From the NCBI GenBank assembly GCA_043825775.1, contig JBDRRK010000012.1, positions 1,237 to 65,236 on the forward strand: a stretch of 64,000 nt of DNA. Direction: 5' to 3'. Positions 29,579 to 43,532 of the stretch are shown here, piece after piece (the stretch's first letter is position 1; the number at the start of each line of letters is the position of its first letter). The translations under genes were made by a program, and so were the position numbers. This stretch comes from an archaeon (GTDB lineage: Archaea; Nanobdellota; Nanobdellia; SCGC-AAA011-G17; GW2011-AR17). The notes under the pieces were generated by a model that had not been told where the DNA came from, made no database searches, and worked only from the letters and a program-made list of their open reading frames with translations.

Positions 29579-30256
29579 ATGGAAAATATTATTGAATTAA
29601 AAGATGTGTGGAAAACTTTTCGAATGGGAGAGGTTGATGTACATGCTCTTAGGGGATTGTCATTACATATTAAAAAAGGAGAGTTTGTTTCTATACAAGG
29701 ACCAAGTGGTTCAGGTAAAAGTACTACTATGTTTTTAGTTGGTTGTTTAGATTTACCTTCAAAAGGTGGAGTTTATTTAGATGGTCAGAATATTGCAACA
29801 TTAGGTGAATCACATTTAGCTCAAATTAGAGGTAGAAAAATTGGTTTTATTTTTCAAAGTTTTAATTTATTAGGGAATATTAGTGCAAAAGATAATGTTG
29901 AGTTGCCCATGACTTTTCAAGGTGTTGATGCAGCAACTAGAAGTAAAAAATCTATTGAGTTGTTAACTAAAGTTGGATTGAGGCATAGGATTACTCACAA
30001 ACCAACTGAATTATCAGGTGGGGAAAGGCAGAGAGTTGCAATTGCAAGAGCTTTAGCAAATGATCCTGAAGTAATCTTAGCTGATGAGCCAACTGGAAAT
30101 TTAGATTCTAAAACTGGAAAAGAAATTATGGATTTGTTAAAGGATTTAAATGTTAGAGAGAAGAGAACAATTATTATGGTTACCCACGATAGAAGCATTG
30201 CTATGGAAGCAAAAAGGCAAATATATTTAAAGGATGGGAGAATTAGCAAAACATAA
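29579..30256 (+). CDS. ABC transporter ATP-binding protein (MacB/LolD-type)
   Basis: Walker A 'GPSGSGKST', signature 'LSGGERQRVAIARAL', Walker B 'ILADEPTGNLD'. Confidence 0.9.
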   Translation: MENIIELKDVWKTFRMGEVDVHALRGLSLHIKKGEFVSIQGPSGSGKSTTMFLVGCLDLPSKGGVYLDGQNIATLGESHLAQIRGRKIGFIFQSFNLLGNISAKDNVELPMTFQGVDAATRSKKSIELLTKVGLRHRITHKPTELSGGERQRVAIARALANDPEVILADEPTGNLDSKTGKEIMDLLKDLNVREKRTIIMVTHDRSIAMEAKRQIYLKDGRISKT

Positions 30257-31485
30257 TGAAAAGAGGCATTATATTTTTGGTTATATTACTATTTTGTTTG
30301 TCTTTAGTAAGTGCAACACAGACAGTAATAACAAAATCAGATGAATATAGAATTGATTTACTTCGTTATGATCCTTCACCAATGCAGCCAGCTGAGACTT
30401 CTGTTGTTTATTTTGAAATTACAAATTTGGGTGATGAAATGGTTGATGATTTAGAAATAAATTTAGTAGAAAGTTATCCTTTTTTATTGGGTGAAGGACA
30501 GAGTGATAAAGTTAATTTAAATTTAGCTGCTGGAGAGAAGGGTTCTTTTTCATTTCCTGTTTTTGTTAACAAAGATGCAGAAGATGGATTTTATAGTTTA
30601 AGTTTAAGTTTTTATTCAGAGAAAAAAGGTATGTATGTTAGTCAATTATTTACAATTTATGTTCAAAGAGTTAATAGAGTTGTTTCTGCAACAAGCGTTT
30701 CTGTAGAGAAATCTGATGTTGAAGAAATACCTGGAGTTTTAGAACCTGGAGAGATTGGACAAGTTTCTTTTTCAGTAAGAAATTCAGCTGATTATACAAT
30801 GAAAGATGTTTCTGTTAGACTTGTTTTAAATGATTCATCACCATTTGCACCAATTGGAAGCACTGCACAAAAAGAAATTAGTGAAATAGCTCCTGGTAAA
30901 TTAAAAGATGTTTCTTTTGATGTTATTGCTCTACCAGATGCTTTGTCTGGAGTTTACAAAGTAGATTTAGAAATTGTATATTATAATGAGTTGGGAACAA
31001 AGTATACAAGAACTGATATGATTGGTTTAGTAATTTCTGGCGATCCTAAATTTCATGTAGAAATTAAAGATAATTCAATTGCAAATGTTGGTGGGCAGGG
31101 TGAAGTTACTTTGAATATTGTTAATACTGGTTTAACAAAAGTTAAATTTTTAACTGTTGAATTAAATGAAGGAGATTATAATATTTTATCTGAAAATAAT
31201 GTTTATTTAGGAGATATAGATTCTGATGATGATCAGAGTGTTGATTTTATTTTAGATTTGACTTCTAGTGATAAAATTATAGAGTTACCCTTAACTCTTA
31301 CTTTTTTGGATGCTAACAATCAAGAGTATGTTGTTGAACAAAGTGCTGAATTGCAAATTTATGATTTAGAAAAAAGTAATGGTAAAATTACTTGGATTAT
31401 TTTGATTGTTTTAATACTTGTAGTAGGAATTATTGTTTATAGTAAGTATAGGAAAAGGTTCAAGGGTTTCTTTAAGAAAAAATGA
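30256..31485 (+). CDS. Surface-exposed protein with N-terminal signal peptide and C-terminal TM anchor (ABC-transporter-associated)
   Basis: Signal-like 'IIFLVILLFCLSLVSA'; C-terminal 'ITWIILIVLILVVGIIVYSKYRKR'; sits inside the MacB-like operon with overlapping stops and starts. Confidence 0.5.
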   Translation: MKRGIIFLVILLFCLSLVSATQTVITKSDEYRIDLLRYDPSPMQPAETSVVYFEITNLGDEMVDDLEINLVESYPFLLGEGQSDKVNLNLAAGEKGSFSFPVFVNKDAEDGFYSLSLSFYSEKKGMYVSQLFTIYVQRVNRVVSATSVSVEKSDVEEIPGVLEPGEIGQVSFSVRNSADYTMKDVSVRLVLNDSSPFAPIGSTAQKEISEIAPGKLKDVSFDVIALPDALSGVYKVDLEIVYYNELGTKYTRTDMIGLVISGDPKFHVEIKDNSIANVGGQGEVTLNIVNTGLTKVKFLTVELNEGDYNILSENNVYLGDIDSDDDQSVDFILDLTSSDKIIELPLTLTFLDANNQEYVVEQSAELQIYDLEKSNGKITWIILIVLILVVGIIVYSKYRKRFKGFFKKK

Positions 31486-32702
31486 TTAAAGACTATTTTG
31501 CATTTGCTTTCAGGAGCATTGTAACAAGGAAGTTAAGAAGTTGGTTAACTATAATTGGAATTTTTATTGGTATTGCTACGGTTGTTGCTTTGATTGCAGT
31601 TGGTCAAGGAATGGAAGCTGCTGTTACAGAACAGTTTGAAAAATTAGGAACTGATAAAATTGTTATTTCTGCTGGTGGAGATGCTGCTGGTTCTACTTTT
31701 GGAATGGGTTTGGCTGCTAAACCTATAACTTATGATGATATAGATGTTGTCAATGATGTAAGGGGTGTTGATGTTGCTGCTGGAATGGTTACAAGAATTG
31801 CAGCTGTAAAATTTGGTGATGAAACTAAAAATACATGGATTAATGGTTATCCTGTAGATGAAACTTCTGAGGTTATTGAAGATATACAGTCATATAAAGT
31901 TATTGAGGGAAGAGATTTAGAAGATGGTGATACTTATGAGATGGTTATTGGAAATGATTTTGCTTATGATTTTTTTGAGGATGAAGTTTCTGTTGGTGAT
32001 AAAATAGAGATTGAAGGTAAGAAATTTAGGGTTATTGGTATCTTGGATACGATTGGAAATAGACAGGATGATACAGCTGCTTCTATTCCAATTGATACAG
32101 CTGCTGAAATATTTGGTACAAGGGATGAAATTTATGGAATAATGGTTAAAGTTGATGCTGGTGAAGATCCTCCTGTTATTGCTGAGAGAATTAAAGAAGA
32201 TTTAAGAGATTTTAGAGACGAAGAAGAAGGGGAAGAAAGTTTTTCTGTTCAAACTTTTCAGCAGATTTTGGAACAGGTAGGAGTTGTGTTGAATATTATT
32301 ACTGCTGTGTTGTTAGGGATTGCTGGAATTTCATTGTTAGTTGGTGGAATAGGTATTATGAATACTATGTATACTTCTGTACTTGAGAGAACAAAAGAGA
32401 TTGGAATTATGAAAAGTATTGGTGCTAAGAATTCTGATGTTATGTTAATATTTGTTTTAGAATCTGGGATGTATGGTTTGGTTGGAGGGGGAGTTGGTAT
32501 TATCTTTGGTGCTGGTTTATCCTTGATTGTTGCACAGGTTGCTGGAGCTGCATTAGGCATTGATTATTTTAGGGCTCAGATTTCTATATGGTTGATTTTA
32601 GGTGCTTTAGCTTTTAGTTTTATTGTTGGAATTGCTTCTGGTGTATTCCCTGCTAGACAGGCTTCAAAGATGCAGCCAGTTGATGCATTGAGATATGAGT
32701 AA
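31482..32702 (+). CDS. ABC transporter permease, FtsX/MacB-like
   Basis: N-terminal TM, large extracytoplasmic domain, C-terminal 3 TM with an FtsX-type 'MYTSVLERTKEIGIMKSIGA' segment. Confidence 0.8.
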   Translation: MIKDYFAFAFRSIVTRKLRSWLTIIGIFIGIATVVALIAVGQGMEAAVTEQFEKLGTDKIVISAGGDAAGSTFGMGLAAKPITYDDIDVVNDVRGVDVAAGMVTRIAAVKFGDETKNTWINGYPVDETSEVIEDIQSYKVIEGRDLEDGDTYEMVIGNDFAYDFFEDEVSVGDKIEIEGKKFRVIGILDTIGNRQDDTAASIPIDTAAEIFGTRDEIYGIMVKVDAGEDPPVIAERIKEDLRDFRDEEEGEESFSVQTFQQILEQVGVVLNIITAVLLGIAGISLLVGGIGIMNTMYTSVLERTKEIGIMKSIGAKNSDVMLIFVLESGMYGLVGGGVGIIFGAGLSLIVAQVAGAALGIDYFRAQISIWLILGALAFSFIVGIASGVFPARQASKMQPVDALRYE

Positions 32703-32737
32703 AGCTTTTAAAGAAAAGTTTTGTATTCTTTAGATAT

Positions 32738-32868
32738 GCCGAGGTGGCGCAACCTGGTACCGCGCAGATTATATTTATAGTATAAGTGTAAGCCTGGAAA
32801 GAGAATCTTTTCAAGACCAGATAGCCTGTTTCCATCTGGATATCTGGGTTCGAATCCCAGCCTCGGCG
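32738..32868 (+). tRNA. Intron-containing tRNA (about 131 nt; identity undetermined), integration target
   Basis: Acceptor GCCGAGG/CCTCGGC + discriminator G; D-arm GCG-CAACCTGGTAC-CGC; anticodon stem CAGAT…ATCTG interrupted by about 57 nt; T-arm CTGGG-TTCGAAT-CCCAG. Confidence 0.6.
32856..32868 (+). repeat. attL: 13-bp direct repeat 'cccagcctcggcg' (3' end of the tRNA)
   Basis: Exact copy recurs at 45863-45875. Confidence 0.55.
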
Positions 32869-32987
32869 GATTTATTCTGTTTAGGTTCCCTGTATGAAAA
32901 TATGTATCGACTTCATACTTGTGTTTAGGTTCGCTGTAGGTATTACCTGCACTTAAATATGAGTTCTGACATAATAGGAGTATAACA

Positions 32988-34220
32988 ATGGCAGAAGATG
33001 ATATCTATAAAAGTAAGCAAAAATATGAAACTGTTGTTAATGGTTTTGATAGCTTAATAGAGAAACCAACTGGTAAAAGTAAATATTTTTGTAAGAATAA
33101 AAAGAATATAAAATATTTTAAGGGGTTGGTTAAATATTTTGATTTGAAAGATTTAAGTTATATTAGAAGACGTAAGGTTTTGTACATTATGAGATTAATT
33201 ACTTTTGTGATTAAAAAAGATTTGAAAGATTGTGAAAGAGAAGATGTTAATGAATTGGTTGCTTTTGGTCATGAAAGGTTTAAGACAATAACAAGTAAAA
33301 AAGATTTTATCAAGGATGTAAAAGTAATTTGGAGAGTTCTTTTTCCTGAAAAAGATAATAAGGGAAGAATAGATGAAACCTTAACTCCTTATGCAGTAAG
33401 GCATTTGTCTAATAAAATAGATAAAAGTAAAGAGAAATTAAGGAATGATAGGATTTCTTTAGAAGAGTTTGAAGCGATTGTTAAATTCTATGATAATGAT
33501 CCTAAAATGCAGGCTTATTTGACTCTTGCTTTTGAAAGTTTGGGTAGACCTCAGGAAATTCTTTATACTAAAATAAAAGATTATGAATTTTATGATAACT
33601 ATGCGAGGATTTGGATATCTGAACATGGGAAAGAAGGATGTGGTTTTTTACAATGTATTGATAGTCTGCCTTATGTTTTGAATTGGTATAGGAATCATCC
33701 TTTGAAAGGTGATAAAGATGCATTCTTTTTTATTAGTGAGAACAATAGGGCTAAGTATGGGCAGTTGAAAAACCATAATATCAATCAAAGATTAAAACAT
33801 GCTTGTAAGGTTTTAGGTATTGATAAGAATATAACTTGTTATTCTTTGAAAAGAAATGGTATTACTCATAGAAGAATAAGAGGAGATTCTGATACAGAGA
33901 TACAGCATGCTGCCAGATGGACTTCTACAAGGCAGTTGAAGATATATGATATGAGTACTCAAGAAGATGCCTTGAAAATTGCTTTGAAGAAAAGAGGGTT
34001 TGTAGAGAAAGAGTCTAATGTAAATACTGAAAGTAAAAAGTGTGTGTTTTGTGGTCAAGATAATGGGTTTTCAGAAGAGTTTTGCTCTGTTTGTAAAAGA
34101 CCTTTAGATAGGGATAAGTTAAGGGAACAGGCACAGATGCACGAAAGGTTGATGCAGAACAATATTGTCCAGAAATTAGATAAAATGGAGCAGATGTTTG
34201 GGAAGATGAAAAAGATGTAA
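32988..34220 (+). CDS. Tyrosine-type site-specific integrase (with C-terminal zinc ribbon)
   Basis: Box I-like 'ESLGRPQEI'; C-terminal catalytic region '…ITHRR…QHAARWTSTRQLKIYD' with H/W/Y spacing typical of Xer/integrase family; 'CVFCGQ…CSVCKRP' zinc ribbon. Confidence 0.7.
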   Translation: MAEDDIYKSKQKYETVVNGFDSLIEKPTGKSKYFCKNKKNIKYFKGLVKYFDLKDLSYIRRRKVLYIMRLITFVIKKDLKDCEREDVNELVAFGHERFKTITSKKDFIKDVKVIWRVLFPEKDNKGRIDETLTPYAVRHLSNKIDKSKEKLRNDRISLEEFEAIVKFYDNDPKMQAYLTLAFESLGRPQEILYTKIKDYEFYDNYARIWISEHGKEGCGFLQCIDSLPYVLNWYRNHPLKGDKDAFFFISENNRAKYGQLKNHNINQRLKHACKVLGIDKNITCYSLKRNGITHRRIRGDSDTEIQHAARWTSTRQLKIYDMSTQEDALKIALKKRGFVEKESNVNTESKKCVFCGQDNGFSEEFCSVCKRPLDRDKLREQAQMHERLMQNNIVQKLDKMEQMFGKMKKM

Positions 34221-34280: not shown

Positions 34281-34424
34281 ATGAAACAGAAATTAAGCAT
34301 AACTATCGAGGAAGAAACTATAAAAAAATTAGAACAATTCATCCAAACTGGTAAATTTAGAAATAAATCACACTTAATAGAATATAGTCTTAATGAATTT
34401 TTGAGAGGAGAAAAAAATGAGTGA
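34281..34424 (+). CDS. Ribbon-helix-helix (CopG/Arc-like) small DNA-binding protein
   Basis: 47 aa 'MKQKLSITIEEETIKKLEQFIQTGKFRNKSHLIEYSLNEFL' fits the RHH pattern (beta-strand 'ITIEEE' then two helices). Not in the ORF track because it is under 60 aa; overlaps the next start. Confidence 0.5.
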   Translation: MKQKLSITIEEETIKKLEQFIQTGKFRNKSHLIEYSLNEFLRGEKNE

Positions 34425-35784
34425 ATTAACCTATGATGAATTAGTATTTCCAAATTATGTAAATAGTAATACTGCAGTTCGATTGAGAGCTAATATTGAT
34501 GGAAGATTACAAACATTAGAGTTAAGTGTTTGTGATATGGCTTATGCAATTGAACTTGCTGGTTTGAATAGTTTATGGTTATCTGATACTGGAAGAGGTA
34601 AAACTCAGTTAATGTCTGATATTGCTTGGCATCATTTTGGTGGTGACCAAGAAGAAGGTGATGCTAACTGGGCTGATGGAAGACCAAGTTTTGATATTAC
34701 TGATTTGTTTGAAAGAACTCAAGTTGATTTAGAATCAGGAAAGTTTGATAGTGATACTGCTCGTCAAGTTAAGGCAAACAGAATTAGAAGAATGTTTTTT
34801 GGAGTTGATGAAATTAATCGTGCTCCTAATCCAAGACAGAACGAATTTTTTGATTTAGCTGATGGTAAATATACTTTTAATGGGAGGAGACTGGATTTAG
34901 GTAAAGAAGGTTATGCTATTTTTATGGCTACTGCCAACTTAAACAAAATGAATGGTGATTTCTCTGGAACTTTTGAATTAGATAGAGCTCTTTTGAACAG
35001 AGCCCATGTAACTATAGATTTAGATCATCCTGATTTCAGACCTACTGTTGAGGATGAAATGCTTATTGAAGAGGGGAAAGCTAATCCAAAAGTAGATATT
35101 GCTCCTGCTCAAAATTTAAGTGGTAAAATCTTAACAGCAAATAAAGAAATAATGGCTACAGCTAGACAACTGAATCCTTATTTTACTGCTTTTAGATTTT
35201 TGATAGGAAGAGGATTAGATTATTGTGCTACAGATAAATATGATGAAAAAGGATCAAATTTTCCAATGCTCTGTGCTGAATGTGATGACACAGGTAAAGA
35301 TCTTTGTTCTAGGGTTAAAGGTTCTTCAGAAAGAACCTTACCTGCAGTAAAGAGTTTAGCTTATGCTTTGTCATATATTGCAAAATTGAAAACTGGAAAA
35401 GAAGTTGAAATTGATCCATTAGATGCTACTTTGCAGGCATTTAGATTTACTACATATCATGGTAATTTAAATGAGCTTATGGCTGAAGACCAATATGCAA
35501 TGAGAAAACAGATTATGATGGATGAAACAGTTGAAAAGTTATCTGGTGTTGTTGATGTTTTACGTCCTTATTTGCCAATTATGATAGATGGTGGGGAACC
35601 AGTTATTGTTAGTTACCAATTTAAAGGTGAACAATTTGATGGTCCAAAAACAGATAAAACAATTAGTACATTAAGAAAAGCAGGGATTTCATATCAGGAA
35701 AAGGGACTCAAAGCTGAATTAAAAGAACAAGGTCTTGGTACTGACTGGATTGACCCTTATGTTAAATCTATGAGGAAAAAATGA
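34417..35784 (+). CDS. MoxR-family AAA+ ATPase
   Basis: Walker A-like 'SDTGRGKTQL'; Walker B 'FFGVDEINRAPNPRQNEFFDLADG'; sensor-1 region 'FMATANLNKMNGDFSGTFELDRALLNRA'; these match MoxR 'DEINRAxPKTQSALLE…ATQNP…GTYPLPEAQLDRF'. Confidence 0.75.
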   Translation: MSELTYDELVFPNYVNSNTAVRLRANIDGRLQTLELSVCDMAYAIELAGLNSLWLSDTGRGKTQLMSDIAWHHFGGDQEEGDANWADGRPSFDITDLFERTQVDLESGKFDSDTARQVKANRIRRMFFGVDEINRAPNPRQNEFFDLADGKYTFNGRRLDLGKEGYAIFMATANLNKMNGDFSGTFELDRALLNRAHVTIDLDHPDFRPTVEDEMLIEEGKANPKVDIAPAQNLSGKILTANKEIMATARQLNPYFTAFRFLIGRGLDYCATDKYDEKGSNFPMLCAECDDTGKDLCSRVKGSSERTLPAVKSLAYALSYIAKLKTGKEVEIDPLDATLQAFRFTTYHGNLNELMAEDQYAMRKQIMMDETVEKLSGVVDVLRPYLPIMIDGGEPVIVSYQFKGEQFDGPKTDKTISTLRKAGISYQEKGLKAELKEQGLGTDWIDPYVKSMRKK

Positions 35785-36551
35785 CTAACACACTAAAACC
35801 ACTGAACTTAGGAAGAAGAATACTAACAGAAGAGGAAGTTTTAGAGCAGTTAGCGGGTTATCAACCAACTAATCCTAGACAAGAACTTGAACCAACTCCT
35901 CAACCACAACCAACACCGGAGCCAGAACAAGAAGCAGATATAATTCCTCAAGACTATATACTATTAGAAGGAACAAATAACTATCAAGATACATTTATTT
36001 CAACTACAAGAACACACCAAGGAAATAATTGGAATAAAACCCAAGAGCTTTTACATGCACGAGATCTCTATATGCCTACTATTAAGCAATTTGTTGATTT
36101 TCTTAAATTACTGAGAAGTGGAACAGCTTTTAATGGAAATGGAGATAACATTCCATCTTCACAACTGGATGCAATATACAAGGACATAACTGAAGTGAAA
36201 GACCCATGGAGAGCAGAATGGTTGGATGCTAAATTTGAAGGTAACCTTATTCATTATCATCATAGAACCAGGCAGGGAAGTTTACAATCTGTAGTTTCAG
36301 AAGGACTAGTTCCATATTTAAGACAGGACAAGACCCCCGGTATTGATTTAGAATACTGGATAAACAATTCCACTTCACAAGGTTTACCTTTGGATAATAC
36401 TCTAAATGGGAATTTATATTATTGGCATCCAAGAGATGGTGCTGTCGCGAGGTTCAGTGCGAATTCGGATAGGGCTTACCTTATTTGTAGCAGGTACCCT
36501 TGGAGCTCGAATTCCTCTCTCGGGGTACGTCCTTGCGCGCGAAAAAATTAA
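35781..36551 (+). CDS. DGR target protein 1 (C-terminal variable C-type-lectin/FGE-like fold ending '…SLGVRPCARKN')
   Basis: The 3' end contains VR1, which is homologous to the TR with adenine-specific mismatches; paralog of 38375-39166; start overlaps the MoxR stop. Confidence 0.8.
   Translation: MTNTLKPLNLGRRILTEEEVLEQLAGYQPTNPRQELEPTPQPQPTPEPEQEADIIPQDYILLEGTNNYQDTFISTTRTHQGNNWNKTQELLHARDLYMPTIKQFVDFLKLLRSGTAFNGNGDNIPSSQLDAIYKDITEVKDPWRAEWLDAKFEGNLIHYHHRTRQGSLQSVVSEGLVPYLRQDKTPGIDLEYWINNSTSQGLPLDNTLNGNLYYWHPRDGAVARFSANSDRAYLICSRYPWSSNSSLGVRPCARKN
36442..36522 (+). repeat. DGR variable repeat VR1
   Basis: 81 nt aligned to the TR (39419-39519); 8 mismatches, all at TR adenines. Confidence 0.8.
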
Positions 36552-36569
36552 CGATCAATACAAGAAAAA

Positions 36570-38378
36570 ATGGATACAAACCAAGTAACAGAAGAAATCA
36601 AGGCAAGAGAAACTGCAAGATTTAACTATAAAGGAAAGGTTTTAGTTAGAGAGTTATCTAGAGAACCTTGTTTTTCTGGCAGTATTGATATGCTTACTAC
36701 TGCAAAAATAGAGGTTGGTTATAATCCAGATTATCCAGAAGAAGCTCAACATTTAGAAGGAATTGTTACTGAACCTTTTGAAAGAGCAATGACTTCAGTT
36801 TTAAGACATGAGCTTAATCATAAAGGTGGAGGAGAATTTCAAGGATGCCCTAGAAATATTGATTTACATGCTGAAAATGTTCTTGAACCTGCAGCAGAAG
36901 TATTACAAAGTTTAGGTTTACCAAATGTCCCTGTTACTGAAAATCAAACTCTTTATGCTTACATGGCTAACTTAATAGAAGATGTTTTTGACAATGCAGA
37001 ATTAGGCAATAATTCTGACCATGTTGGTATGTTTCTAGCTTACAAAGATGATGCTCAACATCTACCTGATGATATGGAAGGGAAACTCTCACCTCTATTT
37101 GATGCTTTTGTTCAATTGCAACAAAAATTATATGGTGGGAGAGCAAGCAGAAAATTATTAGCTGAACATTATTCTGATGATAATAGAGTTCAAACTGCAA
37201 TTGATAATTTTATGCAAAGGTCTGGTTTGACTGATATGACGAGAGAAGTCACAACTAGAAGAAGAAAAGAGAGAGTTGAAATATTTGATAGAAAAGAAGC
37301 AGTTCAATATTTGATGGATGAAAACAATTGGCCAGAATTGTCAAAAATCTTAACAGAAGAATTTGCTGAATTGATTGATAAAAATAAATTACAACAACCA
37401 GATTATGTTAAAGGAACTTTCATACCTCTAAAAGGTGAGGCTGATGGATTTTCTGATGAAATGGATGATAAAGAGACTAAAATGAGATTAGTTTGGAAAA
37501 AATATGTTGAAGGAAAGGGAAAAGAATCAAGTCCTGCTTTCCAACCTCCTGCTTATTTAGAAAGTTTTGAAGCTTTGGATTTAGTCTATCAAAGATTAGC
37601 AAGAAATTTAGAAATCAAAACAAAAGCTTCCACAAGAACTGCAAGTATGCCTGTAATGCACTATGGAAAGAGAAAGTTTGACCCAAGAAGAGATAAATTA
37701 TCAAAAGCCAGAATTGGTTTTGGCAGAAAAGGAAAATTAGAGTTAAGTGTAGGAAGATTTCATGAGGATTATCCAGTTGAATATACTGAAAGAATGAGAA
37801 GTCTGCCAGAAATAAAGTTTGTTATGATGGATACCTCTGGAAGTATGTCTCATCCTGTAGAAGGAAGTGATACTGGTAAAGTCATGAATCCTTGGGCAGA
37901 TGAAAGAAGACAATGGGGAGATAATAGCAGATATCATCATGCGTTAGTTGCTTGGTATGGTTTGTTAGGATTATTAAGAAAACAAGGAACATTAAAACAT
38001 AAATCAGTCAAATTAGCTAATTATTCAAGTTCTACTCAAACAGCTTCTGATTTAAGAGATGCTAAAAAATTGGCTTTAACACCTCAGTTCGGAGGTACAG
38101 AGTTAGATTTAGACACTATTGATGATATGTTTGGAAGAGACCAGTTGATATTCTCTTTATCAGATGGAGATGTTGATAACTGGAATCGAATTAAAGATGA
38201 ATATATCCAAAGAGCCAAACAAAATCATTATTTTCATTTGCAAATTGGTGGAGAAACAGCAATGTCACGAGATTTAGAATCTGCAGGTTTGGTAGTTAAA
38301 TATGATGATGGTAAGAATTTAGGTAAAATGGTTATTGATTTAACAAGACCATATATTACTAGGATGGAGAAAAAATGA
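36570..38378 (+). CDS. VWA-domain protein with MIDAS motif (MoxR partner)
   Basis: C-terminal half: 'KFVMMDTSGSMS' (DxSxS MIDAS) and downstream 'IFSLSDGDVDNW'; follows the MoxR gene pattern. Confidence 0.75.
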   Translation: MDTNQVTEEIKARETARFNYKGKVLVRELSREPCFSGSIDMLTTAKIEVGYNPDYPEEAQHLEGIVTEPFERAMTSVLRHELNHKGGGEFQGCPRNIDLHAENVLEPAAEVLQSLGLPNVPVTENQTLYAYMANLIEDVFDNAELGNNSDHVGMFLAYKDDAQHLPDDMEGKLSPLFDAFVQLQQKLYGGRASRKLLAEHYSDDNRVQTAIDNFMQRSGLTDMTREVTTRRRKERVEIFDRKEAVQYLMDENNWPELSKILTEEFAELIDKNKLQQPDYVKGTFIPLKGEADGFSDEMDDKETKMRLVWKKYVEGKGKESSPAFQPPAYLESFEALDLVYQRLARNLEIKTKASTRTASMPVMHYGKRKFDPRRDKLSKARIGFGRKGKLELSVGRFHEDYPVEYTERMRSLPEIKFVMMDTSGSMSHPVEGSDTGKVMNPWADERRQWGDNSRYHHALVAWYGLLGLLRKQGTLKHKSVKLANYSSSTQTASDLRDAKKLALTPQFGGTELDLDTIDDMFGRDQLIFSLSDGDVDNWNRIKDEYIQRAKQNHYFHLQIGGETAMSRDLESAGLVVKYDDGKNLGKMVIDLTRPYITRMEKK

Positions 38379-39166
38379 CTAACACACTAAAACCCCTGAA
38401 CTTAGGAAGAAGAATACTAACAGAAGAGGAAGTTTTAGAGCAGTTAGCAGGTTATCAACCAACTAATCCTAGACAAGAACCTGAACCAACACCTCAACCA
38501 CAACCAACACGGGAACCAGAACAAGAAGCAGATATAATTCCTCAAGATTATATTCTATTAGAATCTACTGGTAATTATCCAGATACTCACATTTCAACTA
38601 CAAGGATACACCAAGGAAATAATTGGTTTCAAGCACATGAAGAGCTACACAAAGAAGGATTGTATATGCCTACATTAAGACAGTTTGTAGATTTCTTAAA
38701 GTTATTAAAAGGAGGAAAGGCATTTAATGGCCAAGGAAATAAAATTCCAAAAAACCAATTGGAACAAATACTGAAAGAAATAATTGAAGTAAGAGCTCCT
38801 GGTAGAGCAGAGTGGCTTGATGCTGATTTTAAGGTAAAGAGTGATATTTTACATATAAATTACAATCATAGAACTGTTGGTGGACAATTACAACCAAATC
38901 AGTCAGAAGTTTTACAACCTTATTTGGATCAAAATAAAACTCCGGGAATTGGTTTAGAGTATTGGTTAAACAATGCAACATCAAGACATGGTCTGCCACC
39001 AGCAAATACTTCAGATGGAAGTTTATATTACTGGGCTCCAATGTCTGACAATAATTCTGTCGCGAGGTTCGATGCGTATTCGGGTAGGGCTAGCCTTAGT
39101 TGTGACGGGAACCCTAGGGACTCGAATTCCTCTCTCGGGGTACGTCCTTGCGCGCGAAAAAATTAA
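38375..39166 (+). CDS. DGR target protein 2 (paralog of target 1)
   Basis: Same N-terminal 60 aa and same C-terminal '…SNSSLGVRPCARKN' as target 1; contains VR2; start overlaps the VWA stop. Confidence 0.8.
   Translation: MTNTLKPLNLGRRILTEEEVLEQLAGYQPTNPRQEPEPTPQPQPTREPEQEADIIPQDYILLESTGNYPDTHISTTRIHQGNNWFQAHEELHKEGLYMPTLRQFVDFLKLLKGGKAFNGQGNKIPKNQLEQILKEIIEVRAPGRAEWLDADFKVKSDILHINYNHRTVGGQLQPNQSEVLQPYLDQNKTPGIGLEYWLNNATSRHGLPPANTSDGSLYYWAPMSDNNSVARFDAYSGRASLSCDGNPRDSNSSLGVRPCARKN
39057..39138 (+). repeat. DGR variable repeat VR2
   Basis: Aligned to the TR; 9 mismatches, all at TR adenines. Confidence 0.8.
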
Positions 39167-39418
39167 CTATCAATACAAGACATAAAAATATAAAAACTAT
39201 GATTTTCTTAATTCCTTGTCTTAGAGACATTATCTTGAGTATTTCCACATCCTAAGGAAATGCAATGAAGGATAATCGCAAGGGCTACATGTAGATTCAT
39301 TAGTGCATTTTCAAAATGTCATAAAATTCAATAATGATAGATAGTAATAATGACAAACCTTGGGAAAGTTTAGAGTGAAACCTAAAATTATGGTGCTTTT
39401 ACAATGAGTTTGCTAAAT

Positions 39419-39519
39419 CTGTCGCGAGGTTCAATGCGAATTCGGATAGGGCTAACCTTAATTGTAACAGGAACCCTAGGAACTCGAAATCTTTTTTAAG
39501 ACGAGATTTCCTCTCTCGG
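39419..39519 (+). repeat. DGR template repeat (TR) with embedded hairpin (39486-39510), immediately upstream of the RT
   Basis: A-rich copy 'ctgtcgcgaggttcaatgcgaattcggatagggctaaccttaattgtaacaggaaccctaggaactcgaaat…cctctctcgg'. It translates to N-A-N-S-D-R-A-N-L-N-C-N-R-N-P-R-N-S (AAC/AAT codons). It lies in non-coding DNA 24 nt upstream of the RT start. Confidence 0.8.
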
Positions 39520-39542
39520 AATAACCTTTGTTATCTAAGACA

Positions 39543-40669
39543 ATGAAAACTTGCAAAAACTTATATTCAAAACTATATTCAATAGACAACCTAAAATTAG
39601 CATTCACAAAAGCTAGAAAAGGAAAAACACTTAGACTAGAGGTAATCAAATTTGAAAAGAATCTTAATAGGGAATTACCTCAACTAAAGAATGAATTAAA
39701 GTTTTTAACTTATAAACCTAAACCTCTAGTAAACTTTATTATTAGGGATCCTAAAATCAGAAAAATAAGCAAATCTCATTTTAGAGATAGAGTTGTCCAT
39801 CATGCACTTTGCAACCTAATAACTCCCATCTTTGAAAAAACATTTATCTTGGATTCTTATGCAAATCAAATAGATAAAGGAACATTAGCTGCTATTCAAA
39901 GATTTGATTATTTCAAGAGAAAAGTAACCAAAAACAATACAAAAAATGCTTATGTTTTCAAGGCAGACATAAGAAAATATTTTGAATCGATAAATCATGA
40001 GATTCTAACAAACACTATAAAAAAGAAAATAAAAGATAGAAGAATAATCTGGTTAATACAAATCATCCTCAACAATTCAACTGGGGGGGGGGCGAACAGA
40101 AAAAGGGCAACATAAATCAAAGATTTCTTTCCTCATATATTCAGAAGGGAATGCCTTTGGGAAACTTAACATCCCAATTCTTTGCAAACCTTTATCTCAA
40201 TGAATTGGATTATTTTGTAAAACGCAAACTAAAAATAAAATATTACATTCGTTATGTTGATGATTTCATAATCTTTCACAATTCAAAAGAAAAACTTGAA
40301 TTTTACAAGGAAGAGATAGGTTCTTTTCTAACGAGTAAATTAGATATAGAATTACATCCAGATAAATCAAGAATATTTCCTATTCACCGAGGAACAAACT
40401 TTCTTGGATTTAAAATATTCCCTTATCATAGGATTATAAAAAACCAAAATCTAAGGAGATTTAAAGGTAAATTAAAACAACTTGAAAAACAATACAGACA
40501 AGGGGGTATAAGTTATGATGAACTATATGATTCCTTGGAAGGCTGGCTTGCTTATGCTAAAAATGCTAATACTTACAAATTGAGAAAGGAGATTTTAGAA
40601 CAAGTAGAAACTCTGTTTTCGAAAGAGGTTTCAAGTAAAGAGATAAATAGATATCAAAAATATAACTAA
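39543..40669 (+). CDS. Diversity-generating retroelement reverse transcriptase (frameshifted in a G10 tract; two ORF fragments 39528-40115 and 40151-40669)
   Basis: RT motif 2 'FKADIRKYFESINHE'; DGR-specific motif 4 'GMPLGNLTSQFFANLYLNELD' (SQ replacing QG); motif 5 'YVDDFIIF'. A homopolymer at 40083-40092 interrupts the frame; an 11-G version reads through. Confidence 0.85.
40083..40092 (+). repeat. G10 homopolymer causing the RT frameshift
   Basis: 'aactggggggggggcgaac'; frame 1 stops 20 nt downstream; the +2 frame is open across the tract and into ORF2. Confidence 0.7.
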
Positions 40670-41064: not shown

Positions 41065-42384
41065 ATGGCTAAAAATAATGATTCTTTGGATGTTACTGCA
41101 GTTATAATAATTCTTGTTGGGATAATAAGTGTTTGTTATATTTGGTGGGAAAGGAATGGACAAGAAATAGAAGCGTCATTTCTCGCAATTCCATGGGTAA
41201 AGATAGGCATAATTATCTTACTTACTCTTATTTCAATATTTATTGTCTATAAAACAATAAAGTACATAGAAAAGAGAAAAAAAGAAAAACAAAGAACAGA
41301 AGAAAGAATAGAAAACGAAAAAAATACCCTTCTTTCCCTACTAAATACAGATTTTCAAGGAAATTCTAGAGAAATAGAAGAACAATACAAAAAAATAAAT
41401 AAAAGAATCAAAGAAATAAATAAAAACATTAGAAATCAATACCAAAAAGAGATAAAATCATTACATAAGAAAACAAAGAATTTAATCCAAACTATAGAAC
41501 AACAAGAATATATAAGATATGAAAGACAATTAGAACAAGAAAGAGAAGAAGAACTAAAAAGAAAAAGACATAAAAATAAAGTAAAAGAATTATTTGAATA
41601 CAAGAAAAAATTAAATTCAATAAGGGCACTACCCTTAAACAAAAAATACTCTTCTGATGTTATTAATGAAGCTACAAAATTAATGAAATACTATGAACAT
41701 AAACAAGGACAACTAAATGAAACAAGAGAAAATGCAATAGAATATTACAAAACACATCCATTGGACACACAACCAGAGATTAGGGAAAATGAAGAAAAAT
41801 TATACAAAGAAGTAAGAGACCAAATAAAACAAGGGAAAATAGAACTAAAGAAAAAACCAAAAATAGAATATCAAGGTAAAAAACTGGAAAAGGATTTTTA
41901 CCTGTCAAAGGATTTAAATGAAGAGACAAAAGCAAAAGCTAGAGCTCAGGGATTTGTACAAGTTGATGGAATAAAACTTGATGGAAAGATACAGGGTGGT
42001 GGTTATTATATAAGAAAGGAAAATCCAAGAGAGAGTAAAAAACACTTCTACTTAAAACACTTATTTGCTAAACTACATGAAAATACACAATTAGAATATC
42101 AGGTTAAAGGCAAAAGGGTAGATGTAGTATTATTGATAGAAGATTACAAGTTAGGGATAGAAATAGAAACTGGAGCCAATAGAGAAAAACAATTAATGGA
42201 GAAGATTTCTTGGTTAAACAAGAATTTTGATCAATGGATTTTTGTCTGTCCAAAAGAGTTGCATGGGAAATATAATAAATTAGTAAATCCTAAGAAAAGC
42301 TTTTGTTTGGGGATTAAGGAAGCAAAGGAATTCATCTTGGAGTTGACTTTACCTGTTGAAGATCTGCAAAGAACAGGTAAATAG
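41065..42384 (+). CDS. Membrane-anchored coiled-coil protein with C-terminal PD-(D/E)xK-like module (hypothetical)
   Basis: 2 N-terminal TM helices, long K/E-rich coiled coil, C-terminal 'GKRVDVVLLIEDYKLGIEIETG'. Confidence 0.4.
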   Translation: MAKNNDSLDVTAVIIILVGIISVCYIWWERNGQEIEASFLAIPWVKIGIIILLTLISIFIVYKTIKYIEKRKKEKQRTEERIENEKNTLLSLLNTDFQGNSREIEEQYKKINKRIKEINKNIRNQYQKEIKSLHKKTKNLIQTIEQQEYIRYERQLEQEREEELKRKRHKNKVKELFEYKKKLNSIRALPLNKKYSSDVINEATKLMKYYEHKQGQLNETRENAIEYYKTHPLDTQPEIRENEEKLYKEVRDQIKQGKIELKKKPKIEYQGKKLEKDFYLSKDLNEETKAKARAQGFVQVDGIKLDGKIQGGGYYIRKENPRESKKHFYLKHLFAKLHENTQLEYQVKGKRVDVVLLIEDYKLGIEIETGANREKQLMEKISWLNKNFDQWIFVCPKELHGKYNKLVNPKKSFCLGIKEAKEFILELTLPVEDLQRTGK

Positions 42385-42479: not shown

Positions 42480-43532
42480 TTAGTATTTATCCAGAATCTT
42501 ATTAAGGAATTTTATAAATTCTTTAGTATCTAAAAAGTAATTAGGATAAGCTTTCTTCAAATCAGCAGTAGTATCAGCACCAACAAGAACAACATCATAT
42601 TCTTTTTTACCATAAATTCTTTTTTCAGCTTTAGCATAATCGTCAAGTGCTTTCTCTTCTTGTCTTTTTGAATAAGAAGTAATGACTAACTTTTCTTGAA
42701 TTGTATCTAATTCAAGTAAGAAAAAATGTACATTTTTTTTACTCTTTAAATCATCAAAAAACTTAATTGATTTAGCCCAACCTACCATCTTAGTTCTAAC
42801 ATTTAATTTTTTTTCTTTTTCCTTGATCAATAAATAAAGTTCTTTTTCATTTGAGGGAGTATTAGGAACTTGAGGACAATTTTCTAATCTTGCAAATGCT
42901 GAACTAACCAATTTAAAGAATTCTTTCCATTCTTCTTCTCCTTCATTTGATTTAATCGCTTGACCAGTAAAAAAATCAACTGTTTCAACTGCTGTAGCCC
43001 AAATATGTTGTAATCTAGATCTAATTTGTACTTCAATTAATAATCCATTATAGATTTTTCTTTTTTCTTTATCACTATTGTATCTATAAATTAAATGTAT
43101 GCTTCTATACCCATCTTCCTTTGGATAGGTAATATAATCCTTTTCATTTACTTTTTTATGTTTTAAGGTTCCATTTGAATAGTAGTCTTGATAGAGCTTC
43201 TTTGCCAATTCAACATCTGTCATAACAGCCCTACATCCTGCAATATCTTGCATTTGAGTTAATTTCATTGTAGCTTTTTTTCCATCATATTTCCTATGCA
43301 ATTTTTTTAAGATAGAAGATACTCTCTTTAGTCTCTGTGCAGATAATGAACTTGGATCTATCTTTTCAGAAGATCTCTTTAACCTTTGCTTAAAAACATG
43401 CATAGGGTAGCTATGGGCCGCTCTCCAATTACTTAAAACCCCTAAAGCTTTGGAACTTTCCTTTTTTGTTAAAATAACTCCTGCAGCATCAGTTTCAGAT
43501 TTGGAGTATTTTTTAGGGTTTATTTGTTTCAT
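42480..43532 (-). CDS. RelA/SpoT-homolog (RSH) synthetase-domain protein with C-terminal extension (toxSAS/CapRel-like)
   Basis: Synthetase motifs 'QRLKRVSSILKKL' (Syn1), 'DIAGCRAVM' (Syn2), 'GYRSIHLIY' (Syn3), 'EVQIRSRLQHIWATAVE' (Syn4), followed by about 140 aa of non-RSH sequence. Confidence 0.7.
   Translation of the reverse strand: MKQINPKKYSKSETDAAGVILTKKESSKALGVLSNWRAAHSYPMHVFKQRLKRSSEKIDPSSLSAQRLKRVSSILKKLHRKYDGKKATMKLTQMQDIAGCRAVMTDVELAKKLYQDYYSNGTLKHKKVNEKDYITYPKEDGYRSIHLIYRYNSDKEKRKIYNGLLIEVQIRSRLQHIWATAVETVDFFTGQAIKSNEGEEEWKEFFKLVSSAFARLENCPQVPNTPSNEKELYLLIKEKEKKLNVRTKMVGWAKSIKFFDDLKSKKNVHFFLLELDTIQEKLVITSYSKRQEEKALDDYAKAEKRIYGKKEYDVVLVGADTTADLKKAYPNYFLDTKEFIKFLNKILDKY

Follow-up and report, generated by a model that had tools for sequence, protein, structure and literature searches.

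DGRs (diversity-generating retroelements) of Nanoarchaeota (DUSEL4) and other DPANN archaea, with the variable protein AvpA, have been described by Paul et al. 2015 (PMC4372165) and Handa et al. 2016 (PDB 5ioo), and a CPR/DPANN set by Wu et al. 2018 (PMC5758913). Since such elements have been published since 2015 (PMC4372165, PMC5758913), a DGR in a DPANN archaeon is not in itself novel. The element described here lies in a window of 64 kb, the whole stretch of DNA that was analysed. It shares with the published elements the general type of reverse transcriptase (RT), one template (TR) for several variable regions (VRs), orphan targets of the C-type-lectin (CLec) fold, an IMH TGGGGT versus an IMH* TGGAAT, and an ultra-small archaeal host. 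However, the available portions of these reports mention neither an intervening sequence in the TR nor a repeat tract in the RT gene, nor any tie to Rfam RT-16 or to a MoxR/VWA cassette (PMC4372165, PMC5758913). A template intron and a tract-switched RT appear to be new for a DGR, as no earlier description was found; Paul et al. 2017 (Nat Microbiol) may mention them.

The prototype, the DGR of Bordetella phage BPP-1, has in common with the window element the adenine-specific mutagenesis from TR to VR, a CLec target with a C-terminal VR, IMH/IMH* directionality and a structured RNA adjoining the TR. It differs in having Avd, whereas no Avd-like accessory gene was seen at the window element. In BPP-1 the structured RNA is the spacer (Rfam RT-10) and follows the TR on its 3' side, whereas RT-16 in the window lies 5', and the end of the TR is separated from the RT start codon (39543) by 23 nt, not by 24 nt as given in a preliminary description of this DNA. 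Moreover, the BPP-1 TR is collinear with its VR and the RT has no tract, while in the window both TR and RT are interrupted. Taken as a whole, the observations would be best explained by a DGR with a spliced template and a tract-switched RT, a reading that we hold with fair though not high confidence. The features of the locus are collected in Table 1.

Table 1. Features of the retroelement and the neighbouring cassette (positions in the window)
Feature	Position	Strand	Evidence and remarks
Tyrosine recombinase (phage-integrase family)	32988..34220	+	Directly upstream of cassette; Pfam Phage_integrase 6.5e-8
MoxR-like AAA+ ATPase, first cassette gene	34417..35784	+	Walker A/B, Pfam, profile search
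Target gene 1, VP1, 256 aa	35781..36551	+	ORF; 69% identical to VP2 (P0003)
VR1	36442..36523	+	7 mismatches to the spliced TR (predicted), all at TR adenines; IMH-like GGGGTAC directly 3', to about 36529
602-aa protein	36570..38378	+	N-terminal region with invariant HExxH; C-terminal VWA domain with DxSxS MIDAS
Target gene 2, VP2, 263 aa	38375..39166	+	CLec fold
VR2 including 5-nt 5' extension	39052..39138	+	TR adenines at all mismatches (8 in the core, 1 in the extension); then IMH-like GGGGTAC
RT-16 RNA motif (Rfam RF03019), structured	39233..39421	+	87.7 bits (gathering score 50), matched over the full-length model; ends at TR start
TR exon 1	39414..39488	+	3' end CUCGAA; its two terminal As open the 5' bulge
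Putative TR mini-intron (19 nt), bulge-helix-bulge-like fold	39489..39507	+	Absent from VRs; minimum-free-energy fold; covariation; tRNA-intron cleavage rule
TR exon 2 (UUCCUCUCUCGG) and IMH*-like AAUAAC	39508..39525	+	12/12 bases identical to both VRs
RT, N-terminal part	39543..40115	+	Out of frame past the G tract; NCBI: 190-aa 'reverse transcriptase domain-containing protein' (P0121)
RT, C-terminal part, -1 frame	40040..40669	+	Motifs GMPLGNLTSQ and YVDDF, and thumb
G10 simple-sequence tract within the RT gene	40083..40092	+	The 64-kb window (about 30% G+C) has no longer run of G or C

One template and two diversified targets

The preliminary description had reported three copies of one segment, and these were found as one TR (39419-39519) and two VRs (36442-36523 and 39057-39138), the latter at the 3' ends of paralogous CLec genes that both end, as had been stated, in LGVRPCARKN. 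When the copies were aligned exactly by computer over a core of 82 nt, a check that the same description had proposed, VR1 and VR2 showed 7 and 8 mismatches to the TR, and 15/15 fell on TR adenines, which occupy 21 of the 82 core positions (hypergeometric P = 3e-5 for VR1 and 6e-6 for VR2). The match between VR2 and TR runs 5 bases further 5' (to TR 39414 and VR2 39052) and adds one A>T change, bringing the total to 16. The restriction to adenines and the substitution types (solely A>G and A>T) were thus as first reported, while the count of 17 mismatches (8 and 9) was not, and the remaining bases are not all identical, since 19 nt of the TR are missing from both VRs. Directly 3' of the core, GGTAC was found in both VRs versus AATAA in the TR, a difference that agrees with the TGGGGT/TGGAAT pair known from Nanoarchaeota DGRs (PMC4372165). 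Pairs of TR and VR with A-only differences were also present in dozens of relatives. The window itself contains an archaeal 16S-tRNAAla-23S operon and an archaeal RNase P.

In a structural comparison of the targets, DGR variable proteins were among the best matches and the fold was CLec, in agreement with the CLec-like C-terminus proposed before. The RT has the motifs PLGNLTSQ and YVDDF, and the frame-repaired protein matches Pfam RVT_1 with 2e-23. Because VR1 and VR2 differ from each other at TR-adenine positions, diversification has happened, as had been argued from the two unlike VRs. The window element is a genuine DGR of the Nanoarchaeota/Woesearchaeota type, and its earlier reading as an adenine-mutagenic element of a DPANN-type archaeon, with one TR for two VRs, is supported. 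It is not, however, complete and directly readable, as had been claimed, since the RT is split between two frames as encoded, and both targets would be frameshifted by a cDNA made from unspliced TR; that reading had been made without the TR insertion, the RT frameshift, the RT-16 RNA and the MoxR/VWA cassette.

The insertion in the template

Archaeal bulge-helix-bulge introns are known from pre-tRNA, pre-rRNA and a few mRNAs and are cut by EndA and joined by RtcB; the endonucleases of DPANN archaea are often of broad specificity and accept relaxed motifs (PMC5829648). The TR of the window is not collinear with its VRs, both of which lack a 19-nt insertion with exact flanks (39489-39507, ATCTTTTTTAAGACGAGAT). 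Its predicted fold has an outer helix AGGAA/UUCCU, a 5' bulge AAA, a 4-bp central helix CUCG/CGAG, a 3' bulge AU(U) and an inner hairpin UCUU-UUUU-AAGA, and minimum-free-energy prediction returned exactly the order helix, 3-nt bulge, 4-bp helix, 2-3-nt bulge, helix. The stability of this single-sequence fold was not greater than that of shuffles (z = -0.97). Shared with the archaeal introns are the bulges on opposite strands, the 4-bp helix between them, the cleavage two bases into each bulge (predicted for the window) and the short length (18-36 nt), and enzymes of the DPANN type tolerate relaxed variants. In contrast to them, the substrate would be the template RNA of a retroelement and not a tRNA, rRNA or housekeeping mRNA, the 3' bulge measures 2-3 nt, the outer helix is variable and the cleavage is predicted. 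Since the 3' bulge of the best fold has 2 nt where 3 nt are canonical, and several relatives have a weak or displaced outer helix, we regard the motif as relaxed and not canonical. A similar motif is present in the 16S processing stem of the same window.

Sixteen putative introns at the same TR position (14 relatives and the window) follow the same boundary rule, as do two further ones at an upstream TR position, which also have covarying helices. Among the 16 homologous sequences, 82.7% of the cells were paired versus at most 45% with the partner slid, the central helix was paired in 16/16 with compensatory changes, and the observed covariation values were reached by 0 of 500 shuffles. As most of these examples share CUCG/CGAG by descent, they amount to about 5-6 independent confirmations and not to 16. 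Across the relatives the insertions are 18-36 nt long, their inner parts are unrelated in sequence, and six kinds of central helix occur. An unsupervised scan returned 18 TR-only insertions, 14 of which had a junction-compatible register together with a perfect 4-bp central helix (CUCG/CGAG, UGCG/CGCA, AUGA/UCAU and AAUG/CAUU, with 2 more recognised by eye), and the boundaries fit the cleavage rule that genuine tRNA introns of related DPANN contigs display.

In the register used, exon 1 retains two bulge bases and exon 2 begins at the third base of the 3' bulge; under it, 22/22 TR/VR pairs from 13 loci were collinear. The two retained bulge adenines are read in the VRs as GA, TA, AA, GG, TT, GT or AG, and in exon 2 of the relatives the VRs are changed at 8 of 12 TR A positions versus 1 of 252 non-A positions. 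Since TR adenines 3' of the insertion are also mutated in the VRs, the cDNA spans both exons, and since the VRs of relatives carry A-mutations on either side of the junction, the copied template was without the insertion. From these comparisons we infer that the insertion is a tRNA-style intron removed before copying. The host tRNA-splicing endonuclease and an RNA ligase would cleave each bulge after its second base and ligate the ends, which would convert CUCGAA, intron and UUCC to CUCGAAUUCC and recreate an AAU codon at the join. The spliced RNA alone would be usable as a template, because an unspliced copy would frameshift the targets.

The absence of the 19 nt from the VRs, despite mutated adenines on either side, would also be accounted for if the RT jumped over a small hairpin on unspliced TR RNA and the insertion were never spliced out. 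The insertion is indeed a hairpin, and retroelement RTs are able to switch templates. Such a jump should, however, lose both arms of the stem or land imprecisely, whereas the 5' arm of the central helix and two bulge bases are always retained and the 3' arm and two bases always lost, with a base-exact position in 22 TR/VR pairs, introns of 18-36 nt and six central helices. A kept 5' arm and a lost 3' arm are predicted by endonuclease cleavage and not by simple hairpin bypass; the same geometry defines the substrates of archaeal endonucleases and fits the tRNA introns of related contigs. We therefore consider the jump unlikely and prefer removal by splicing.

The repeat tract in the reverse transcriptase gene

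Poly-G and dinucleotide tracts form contingency loci in genes of Neisseria, Haemophilus, Campylobacter and Helicobacter (survey PMC2831843). In the window, a frameshift at the G10 tract splits the RT into two open reading frames in different frames (39543-40115 and 40151-40669). Addition of one G or removal of two would give an RT of roughly 375 aa. Apart from the frameshift, neither half is damaged: all motifs are there and further stops are absent. At the same RT site, relatives have G8-G12 or (GA)6-13. In a census of 33 RT genes, picked via the target gene and not via the RT, tracts (G>=7 or dinucleotide >=5) were present in 15, at a density of 0.43 per kb versus 0.015 per kb in the flanks (roughly 29-fold) and, among relatives, at three different places within the gene. 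Frameshifts were observed in 7/15 tract-bearing RTs versus 0/18 tract-free RTs, every one at a tract.

Alleles with different tract lengths were found in closely related elements. Over 1547 nt, L280 (G10, split) and L282 (G8, intact with 362 aa) share 99.8% identity; the two assemblies that contain them bear the same BioSample label, and the flanks of their tracts are identical to those of the window. L283, L284 and L285, with 97-98.6% identity, have G11 (off), G10 (on) and G9 (off), respectively. In six protein clusters at 90% identity, on alleles were mixed with alleles in both off frames. Part of the differences in tract length between assemblies might be due to homopolymer errors. This comparison of alleles shows switching in the relatives, and by extension the tract of the window looks like a hypermutable on/off switch, with this copy off. 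Its length would change by slippage, G10 being off and G11 or G8 on. As G10 puts the RT out of frame, the window element would be resting in the off state, its VRs having been diversified earlier. Contingency loci share with these genes the tract within the gene, the length variation between near-identical alleles, the occurrence of all three frames and the strong local enrichment; the differences are the archaeal host, the RT of a DGR as the switched gene, and switching that is deduced here from the comparison of alleles.

Off alleles are more numerous than on alleles (about 26 of the 34 closest-relative proteins inspected are out of frame, in a search that may favour short proteins), and full-length RT could instead come from transcriptional or ribosomal slippage. 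The tract would then serve for programmed recoding with a low level of full-length RT; G GGG GGG is plausible as a slippery sequence, and long homopolymers are known sites of polymerase slippage. We find this improbable as the explanation of the tract, since in-frame alleles exist in near-identical elements, both wrong frames occur, (GA)n, which is no classic slippery site, replaces poly-G at the same position, and tracts are found at three locations in the RT gene. Recoding and switching by tract length are compatible and do not exclude each other.

The window derives from a metagenome-assembled contig and homopolymers are error-prone, so that the frameshift might be an assembly or sequencing error in a truly intact gene. 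We give this very little credence: the tract is real and conserved in position, L279, L280 and L281 have an identical G10 from three assemblies, (GA)13 tracts behave likewise, and error leaves the roughly 29-fold enrichment in RT genes without explanation. Decay of the whole element, with the frameshift and the TR insertion as inactivating lesions, is also highly unlikely. In favour of such a fossil are the RT, broken as encoded, the frameshift that an unspliced TR copy would cause in the targets, and the modest number of VR changes (7 and 8). Against it, many divergent relatives have both supposed lesions in the same places, and the adenines of their VRs are heavily mutated on either side of the insertion; the structure of the insertion is conserved and covarying, the RT halves have all motifs and no further stops, and the remaining cassette is intact.

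The surrounding cassette and a proposed working order

RT-16 (RF03019) has been described as a candidate RNA near RT genes, with no function given, and the idea that some RT motifs are possibly parts of DGRs was offered as speculation (Weinberg et al. 2017, PMC5737381). The window sequence resembles the Rfam family in matching it over its full length above the gathering score, and it differs in that the motif is placed, in the window and its relatives, immediately 5' of a DGR TR. It adjoins the TR on this side in the window and in 18 of the 20 relatives scanned (19/21 loci).

MoxR-vWA ternary conflict systems with DGR-diversified FGS/CLec domains are known (Kaur et al. 2020, PMC7159879; Dore et al. 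2024, PMC10907252), and the window cassette shares with them a MoxR-type AAA+ ATPase, a vWA/MIDAS protein and a DGR-diversified CLec domain. However, the bacterial CLec domain is usually fused to the vWA, whereas in the window it is encoded by separate small genes interleaved with those for the ATPase and the VWA protein. The bacterial systems have a third component (VMAP, iSTAND, beta-propeller); the VWA protein of the window has an HExxH N-terminal region; and the hosts are multicellular bacteria there versus DPANN archaea here. In the ATPase family alignment, Walker A (GxGKTQ) and Walker B (DE) do not vary, Pfam matches were to AAA_5 in 14/15 members (best 8.9e-13) and to bpMoxR in 9/15, and a profile search of the PDB matched Clp/ClpB AAA+ modules. 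VP1 consists of a conserved N-terminal peptide, a Pro/Glu-rich linker and the CLec domain, and its family has 241 matches, mostly in DPANN. The order ATPase-VP-VWA-VP-(TR)-RT, or a close variant, was found in at least 15 loci. By analogy, the targets are probably the variable binding modules of a MoxR-VWA system. Homologues of the tyrosine recombinase lie beside the cassette in L008, L013 (49% identity), L026 and L075; it possibly forms part of a mobile unit with the cassette, its membership being uncertain.

In the working order that we propose, one RNA would carry the RT-16 element, the TR and the RT reading frame. The RT would produce an adenine-mutagenised cDNA from the TR, this cDNA would replace the last ~82 nt of the variable region in the two paralogous CLec genes, and the difference between TGGGGT in the VR and TGGAAT in the TR would set the direction. 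Diversification would pass two gates, the splicing of the TR (gate 1) and the tract length of the RT gene (gate 2). With the RT of the element under such a switch, one localised hypermutation device would control another.

The repeats and the gene cassette

The preliminary description had recognised three copies of one repeat, and their positions were borne out. When the template repeat (TR) was aligned to the two variable repeats, anchored at TR 39419 = VR1 36442 = VR2 39057 and with one gap permitted, the core comprised 82 positions, and the TR has an A at 21 of them. VR1 showed 7 core mismatches (hypergeometric P = 3e-5) and VR2 8 (P = 6e-6), each at an A and either A>G or A>T, so that the claimed confinement of mismatches to TR adenines held in 15 out of 15 cases. 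The match of VR2 to the TR extends 5 bases further 5', adding one A>T. The claim that all other bases are identical stood for the sequence flanking the insertion, which matches exactly save at TR adenines, but not for the TR as a whole, which has 19 nt that are missing from both VRs. The two paralogous VRs differ from each other, and A-restricted TR/VR differences were also found in relatives.

Immediately after the core the TR has AATAA, and in its place VR1 and VR2 have GGTAC. VR1 and VR2 carry the same 3'-end element (IMH), CTCGGGGTAC, and the TR its diverged counterpart (IMH*), CTCGGAATAA; the window thereby shares the TGGGGT/TGGAAT pair given for Nanoarchaeota DGRs (PMC4372165). Each VR lies at the C-terminus of a target with a C-type-lectin (CLec) fold, CLec and Ig being the variation-tolerant folds of DGR targets. 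The TR adjoins a reverse transcriptase (RT) which is of the DGR type, as had been described, with PLGNLTSQ and YVDDF and a Pfam RVT_1 match of 2e-23 on the frame-repaired protein; among the NCBIfam profiles its only hit was a sub-threshold group II RT. The Avd accessory protein is not universal among DGRs, and no small basic ORF for Avd or an equivalent was found between VP2 and the RT or just downstream of the RT. It is practically certain that the element is a DGR, and as such it is a further member of an already known group (PMC4372165, PMC5758913).

The RNA RT-16 (Rfam RF03019; 87.7 bits) ends at the TR start, and it occupied the same position in 18 of the 20 relatives scanned. RT-16 had been described as an RNA found near RT genes, with no role assigned to it (PMC5737381); its place next to a DGR template, on the 5' side, now provides this orphan motif with a context. 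Since the gap from TR to RT is only 23 nt, there is no room for a 3' spacer such as that of the Bordetella DGR. Between the IMH*-like GGAAUA and the start codon of the RT there is a small hairpin, AUAAC-CUUU-GUUAU; comparable hairpins follow GGAAUAG in relatives (e.g. UAGC-UCAGGU-GCUA), and it could be an RT-binding or priming element. After the window's IMH only a GCGCGC palindrome and a weak predicted hairpin were seen; clear GC stems, capped by GAA loops, follow the VR in several relatives.

The gene upstream of VP1 encodes a MoxR-like AAA+ ATPase with invariant Walker A and B motifs (AAA_5 in 14 of 15 family members). This MoxR-class ATPase is encoded next to a vWA/MIDAS protein, the pairing that marks MoxR-vWA systems. 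Among 78 genomic loci fetched via the target protein, the order ATPase-target-VWA-target-(TR)-RT or a close variant was present in at least 15. Searches of Pfam, NCBIfam, PADLOC and PDB sequences with the window sequences alone returned nothing for the targets, the ATPase or the 602-aa protein, which could be identified only from alignments of their families and from structure models. Among published systems, the bacterial MoxR-vWA conflict systems come closest in context; their vWA protein carries, as a fusion, a DGR-diversified FGS/CLec domain (PMC7159879). VMAP, iSTAND and beta-propeller components of bacterial ternary systems were not found in the cassette, which was not classed as a described ternary system because genes for a third component or effector are missing from it.

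A tyrosine recombinase lies just upstream of the cassette, and its homologues flank the cassette in four relatives; attachment-site direct repeats were sought around integrase and cassette and none were found. Just upstream of the integrase, ARAGORN with intron search called a 'tRNA-SeC' where Rfam has no tRNA; the call may be false, or it may mark a degenerate tRNA-like attachment site. The ABC-transporter genes further upstream are, as far as can be seen, unrelated to the DGR. Two adjacent short direct repeats are common to the ABC ATPase gene and a gene for a 439-aa coiled-coil/membrane protein downstream of the RT, and they probably reflect a peptide motif common to both proteins, not the borders of an element. 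The two target genes share 86% identity over their first 300 nt (26 nt before the start included) but are far more diverged in the middle, and overall protein identity is 69%. This points to gene conversion, or else to a conserved docking peptide at the N-terminus (MTNTLKPLNLGRRILTEEEVLEQLAGY...) with a Pro/Glu-rich linker after it. A gene 1.8 kb downstream of the RT encodes a 350-aa RelA/SpoT-domain protein (Pfam RelA_SpoT, 1e-16) that aligns nearly end to end with PDC-S33, a candidate defence family in PADLOC (E = 6e-114), and therefore the cassette may sit in a defence-island-like neighbourhood.

Coordinates of features in the window and, where a locus (L) is named, in related genomic loci
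Feature	Location	Strand	Remark
16S rRNA flanks	28648-28628 and 27025-26996	-	paired
ABC ATPase, CARDB-domain protein, MacB/FtsX-type permease	29579-32702	+	
Short direct repeats	30110-30152 and 41880-41920		18 nt each, 89-94% identical
ARAGORN 'tRNA-SeC' call	32737-32869	+	39-nt intron
5' parts of target genes	35755-36054 and 38349-38648		
VP1	35781-36551		target gene
VR1	36442-36523		
VP2	38375-39166		target gene
VR2	39057-39138		
RT-16	39233-39421		
TR	39419-39519		
Minimum-energy fold	39474-39516		AGGAA-CUCG-(AAA)-hairpin-CGAG-(AU)-UUCCU
Outer helix	within 39474-39516		AGGAA/UUCCU
Central 4-bp helix	within 39474-39516		CUCG/CGAG
3-nt bulge, 5' strand	within 39474-39516		AAA
Inner hairpin	within 39474-39516		UCUU-UUUU-AAGA
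2-nt bulge, 3' strand	within 39474-39516		AU
TR insertion	39489-39507		19 nt
Small hairpin	39520-39536	+	
First RT ORF	39543-40115	+	
G10 run	40083-40092		
RT motif-4/5 part	to 40669		-1 frame
RelA/SpoT-domain protein	42480-43532	-	
Intron in two-intron TR	L136 3862-3882		
Intron in two-intron TR	L111 846-871		
Window-site tract, RT out of frame	L036		G9
Window-site tract, RT out of frame	L048		G10
Window-site tract, RT out of frame	L050		G9
Window-site tract, RT out of frame	L059		(AG)7
Window-site tract, RT out of frame	L067		(GA)13
Window-site tract, RT in frame	L056		(AG)6
Window-site tract, RT in frame	L066		(AG)13
Second-site tract, RT in frame	L008, L061		G11
Second-site tract, RT out of frame	L009		G10

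The template insertion and its predicted removal

The insertion in the TR, ATCTTTTTTAAGACGAGAT, is missing from VR1 and VR2. Because 14 relatives have a related element at the same place of the TR, of the form aaCUCG-AAA-UC(variable hairpin)GA-CGAG-NNU, it is not a private lesion; further relatives carry different insertions in their TRs. The archaeal bulge-helix-bulge (BHB) splicing motif consists of two bulges on opposite strands with a 4-bp helix between them, and broad-specificity endonucleases, which are common in DPANN, also cut relaxed forms of it (PMC5829648). As modelled by the minimum-energy fold, the TR motif is such a relaxed form, since its 3' bulge has 2 nt in the best fold, or 3 nt if A39482:U39508 opens. 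The fold energy of the segment alone was non-significant (z = -0.97). In a covariation test on a loop-trimmed alignment of 16 introns, 82.7% of the cells were paired versus 71.8% in shuffles, none of 500 shuffles reaching the observed value, and at most 45% were paired when the partner was slid. The central helix was paired in all 16 homologous introns, with compensatory changes at 3 of its 4 pairs. Eighteen insertions of 10 nt or more that occur only in the TR came out of an unsupervised scan, and 14 of them had a junction-compatible register with a perfect 4-bp central helix, for which the chance of 4/4 pairs is about 0.02 per register. The scan gave four distinct central-helix sequences, and two more were added by eye, among them those of a second class of intron, whose bulges are ACA/AAA and AGA/AAG.

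The TR of some relatives contains two introns, and the one further upstream belongs to a different class with the hairpin AUAGCG..CGCUAU, bulges ACA/AAA or AGA/AAG, central helices AUGA/UCAU or AAUG/CAUU and the same cleavage geometry. The window itself, whose sequence is that of a metagenome-assembled NCBI contig labelled 'archaeon', is archaeal, with an archaeal rRNA operon, RNase P and about 30% G+C. The flanks of its 16S rRNA pair into a long processing stem with a BHB-like motif (13-bp helix, bulge AGA, 4 bp GAGU/ACUC, bulge AAA) comparable to that of the TR. This stem is expected to be an endonuclease site for rRNA maturation, an example within the window of the host enzyme's substrate.

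The cleavage rule was taken from tRNA introns in the fetched related DPANN contigs: the 5' exon retains the first two bulge bases and the 3' exon begins at the third base of the other bulge. Applied to the window, it predicts ...CUCGAA|UUCCUC..., the exact sequence of both VRs. In the window and 22 TR/VR pairs, the junction inferred from the VRs, CTCGAA|TTCC, falls two bases into each bulge, and with the endonuclease register 22 of 22 pairs from 13 loci were collinear. The two retained bulge adenines read GA, TA, AA, GG, TT, GT and AG in VRs. At TR positions 3' of the insertion, 8 of 12 A were mutated in VRs versus 1 of 252 non-A, and therefore the cDNA spans both sides, without the insertion. 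Joined in this way, the TR reads SVARFNANSDRANLNCNRNPRNS-N-SSLGIT in the target frame, an AAU codon being rebuilt at the junction (VR1 36512-36514, VR2 39127-39129); unspliced, its additional 19 nt would shift the target frame. It is very likely that the copied template lacks the insertion.

Other ways of removing it were considered. Canonical 'bulge-helix-loop' cleavage, at the bulge and the hairpin loop, was rejected, as it would excise about 8 nt, not 19. Loss of one stem arm plus the loop of an alternative GAAAUC/GAUUUC hairpin has the right length, but it needs a mismatch in both VRs and the hairpin is not conserved in relatives. A register removing the whole bulge, the hairpin and CGAG leaves in most loci a non-A mismatch after the junction, which disappears with the endonuclease register. 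The central helix is treated asymmetrically, its 5' arm being retained and its 3' arm removed, an outcome that endonuclease cleavage predicts and a polymerase hopping over the hairpin does not. We infer that the TR RNA is spliced, and, judging from sequence, the host splicing endonuclease probably removes the insertion. A scan of viral contigs for the intron consensus gave chance matches only, with neither RT context nor a nearby GGAATA.

The repeat tract in the reverse transcriptase gene

The preliminary description had called the element complete, which did not hold for the RT, encoded as two ORFs, not one. The first ORF stops soon after a run of ten G, where the gene is frameshifted, and the motif-4/5 part (GMPLGNLTSQ, YVDDF) runs on in the -1 frame. 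One extra G or two fewer repair it to a protein of 374-375 aa with a full RVT_1 match. The window's RT allele is off.

This G10 is the longest G/C run in the window. In a census of 33 RT genes recognised in the target-selected locus set and the window, 15 had a tract (7 or more G in a row, or 5 or more units of a dinucleotide repeat), G runs always being on the coding strand, and tract density was 0.43 per kb in RT genes versus 0.015 per kb in their flanks. The tracts cluster at three sites, that of the window being just upstream of GMPLGNLTSQ. All 7 frameshifts were at tracts, and none of the 18 tract-less RTs was frameshifted (Fisher estimate ~0.0015). When proteins were searched with the N-terminal part of the RT, most hits were fragments of 176-270 aa, and about 26 of the 34 fetched RT proteins end just after GGG(G) or RERE, in either wrong frame. 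This search gives no unbiased on/off ratio, as candidate collection may favour short proteins, and the metagenome RT set is biased towards intact RTs.

Six protein clusters at 90% identity mix on and off alleles, their full-length and truncated members being identical up to the tract. Two loci from two assemblies with the same BioSample label, L280 (G10, RT split) and L282 (G8, RT intact at 362 aa), share 99.8% identity across 1547 nt, and their tract flanks (..CGAACAGAAAAAGGGCA) are those of the window. In a further set with 97-98.6% identity, L283 (G11) is off, L284 (G10) on and L285 (G9) off. These alleles come from relatives, not from the window's own population, and a tract that varies in length in this way is what characterises a simple-sequence contingency locus. 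Transcriptional or translational slippage may contribute at the G tract and was kept as a rival explanation; our confidence that the tract is a heritable on/off switch is fairly high.

The RTs of L283-L285 are longer (473-477 aa), with a C-terminal HTH_40 that the window RT lacks. In three loci (L013, L067, L069) gene callers carry the RT ORF upstream through the TR, and five deposited 'RT' proteins (P0135, P0140, P0149, P0151, P0164) start with a translation of the TR (..ARFNANSDRANLNCNRNP..), an annotation artefact that matters for RT clustering.

Proposed control of hypermutation in the lineage

Taken together, the DGR identity, the insertion-free template, its removal by the host endonuclease and the heritable tract switch form a reading that we favour with some reserve. 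Only tentatively do we propose that hypermutation is doubly licensed by the host, through a spliced template, a self-protecting intron and a contingency RT jointly. The DGR template would then exist only after the host tRNA-splicing machinery has excised a mini-intron from the TR RNA. With the intron in it, the TR DNA would not be targeted by its own cDNA, and recombination from VR to TR would be blocked, so that the intron would also serve as a self-protection device. With the RT as a contingency gene, only a small, random fraction of the cells would diversify their receptors at any time.

To our knowledge, DGRs are the only natural systems of targeted protein hypermutation in prokaryotes, and we know of little on how their activity is restrained outside Bordetella phage. 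In the literature searched, whose scope did not include Paul et al. 2017, no work was found that joins the bulge-helix-bulge with DGRs, and no TR intron and no repeat-tract or phase-variable DGR RT. The new content is the two control features, the proposed template intron and tract-switched RT, which give this lineage two cheaply testable control points. DGR finders demanding a collinear TR/VR and an intact RT ORF would miss or truncate such elements, and many such RTs are deposited as fragments of about 190 aa.

If it is indeed spliced in this way, the TR would be the first retroelement template requiring splicing by a host protein enzyme. A host-spliced template would tie the retroelement to the archaeal tRNA-splicing pathway and add to the few substrates of that pathway that are neither tRNA nor rRNA. 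A slippage tract would render the mutator itself stochastic. The cassette also suggests that MoxR-VWA systems with DGR-varied lectin-fold modules, known in multicellular bacteria, occur in the smallest archaea as well.
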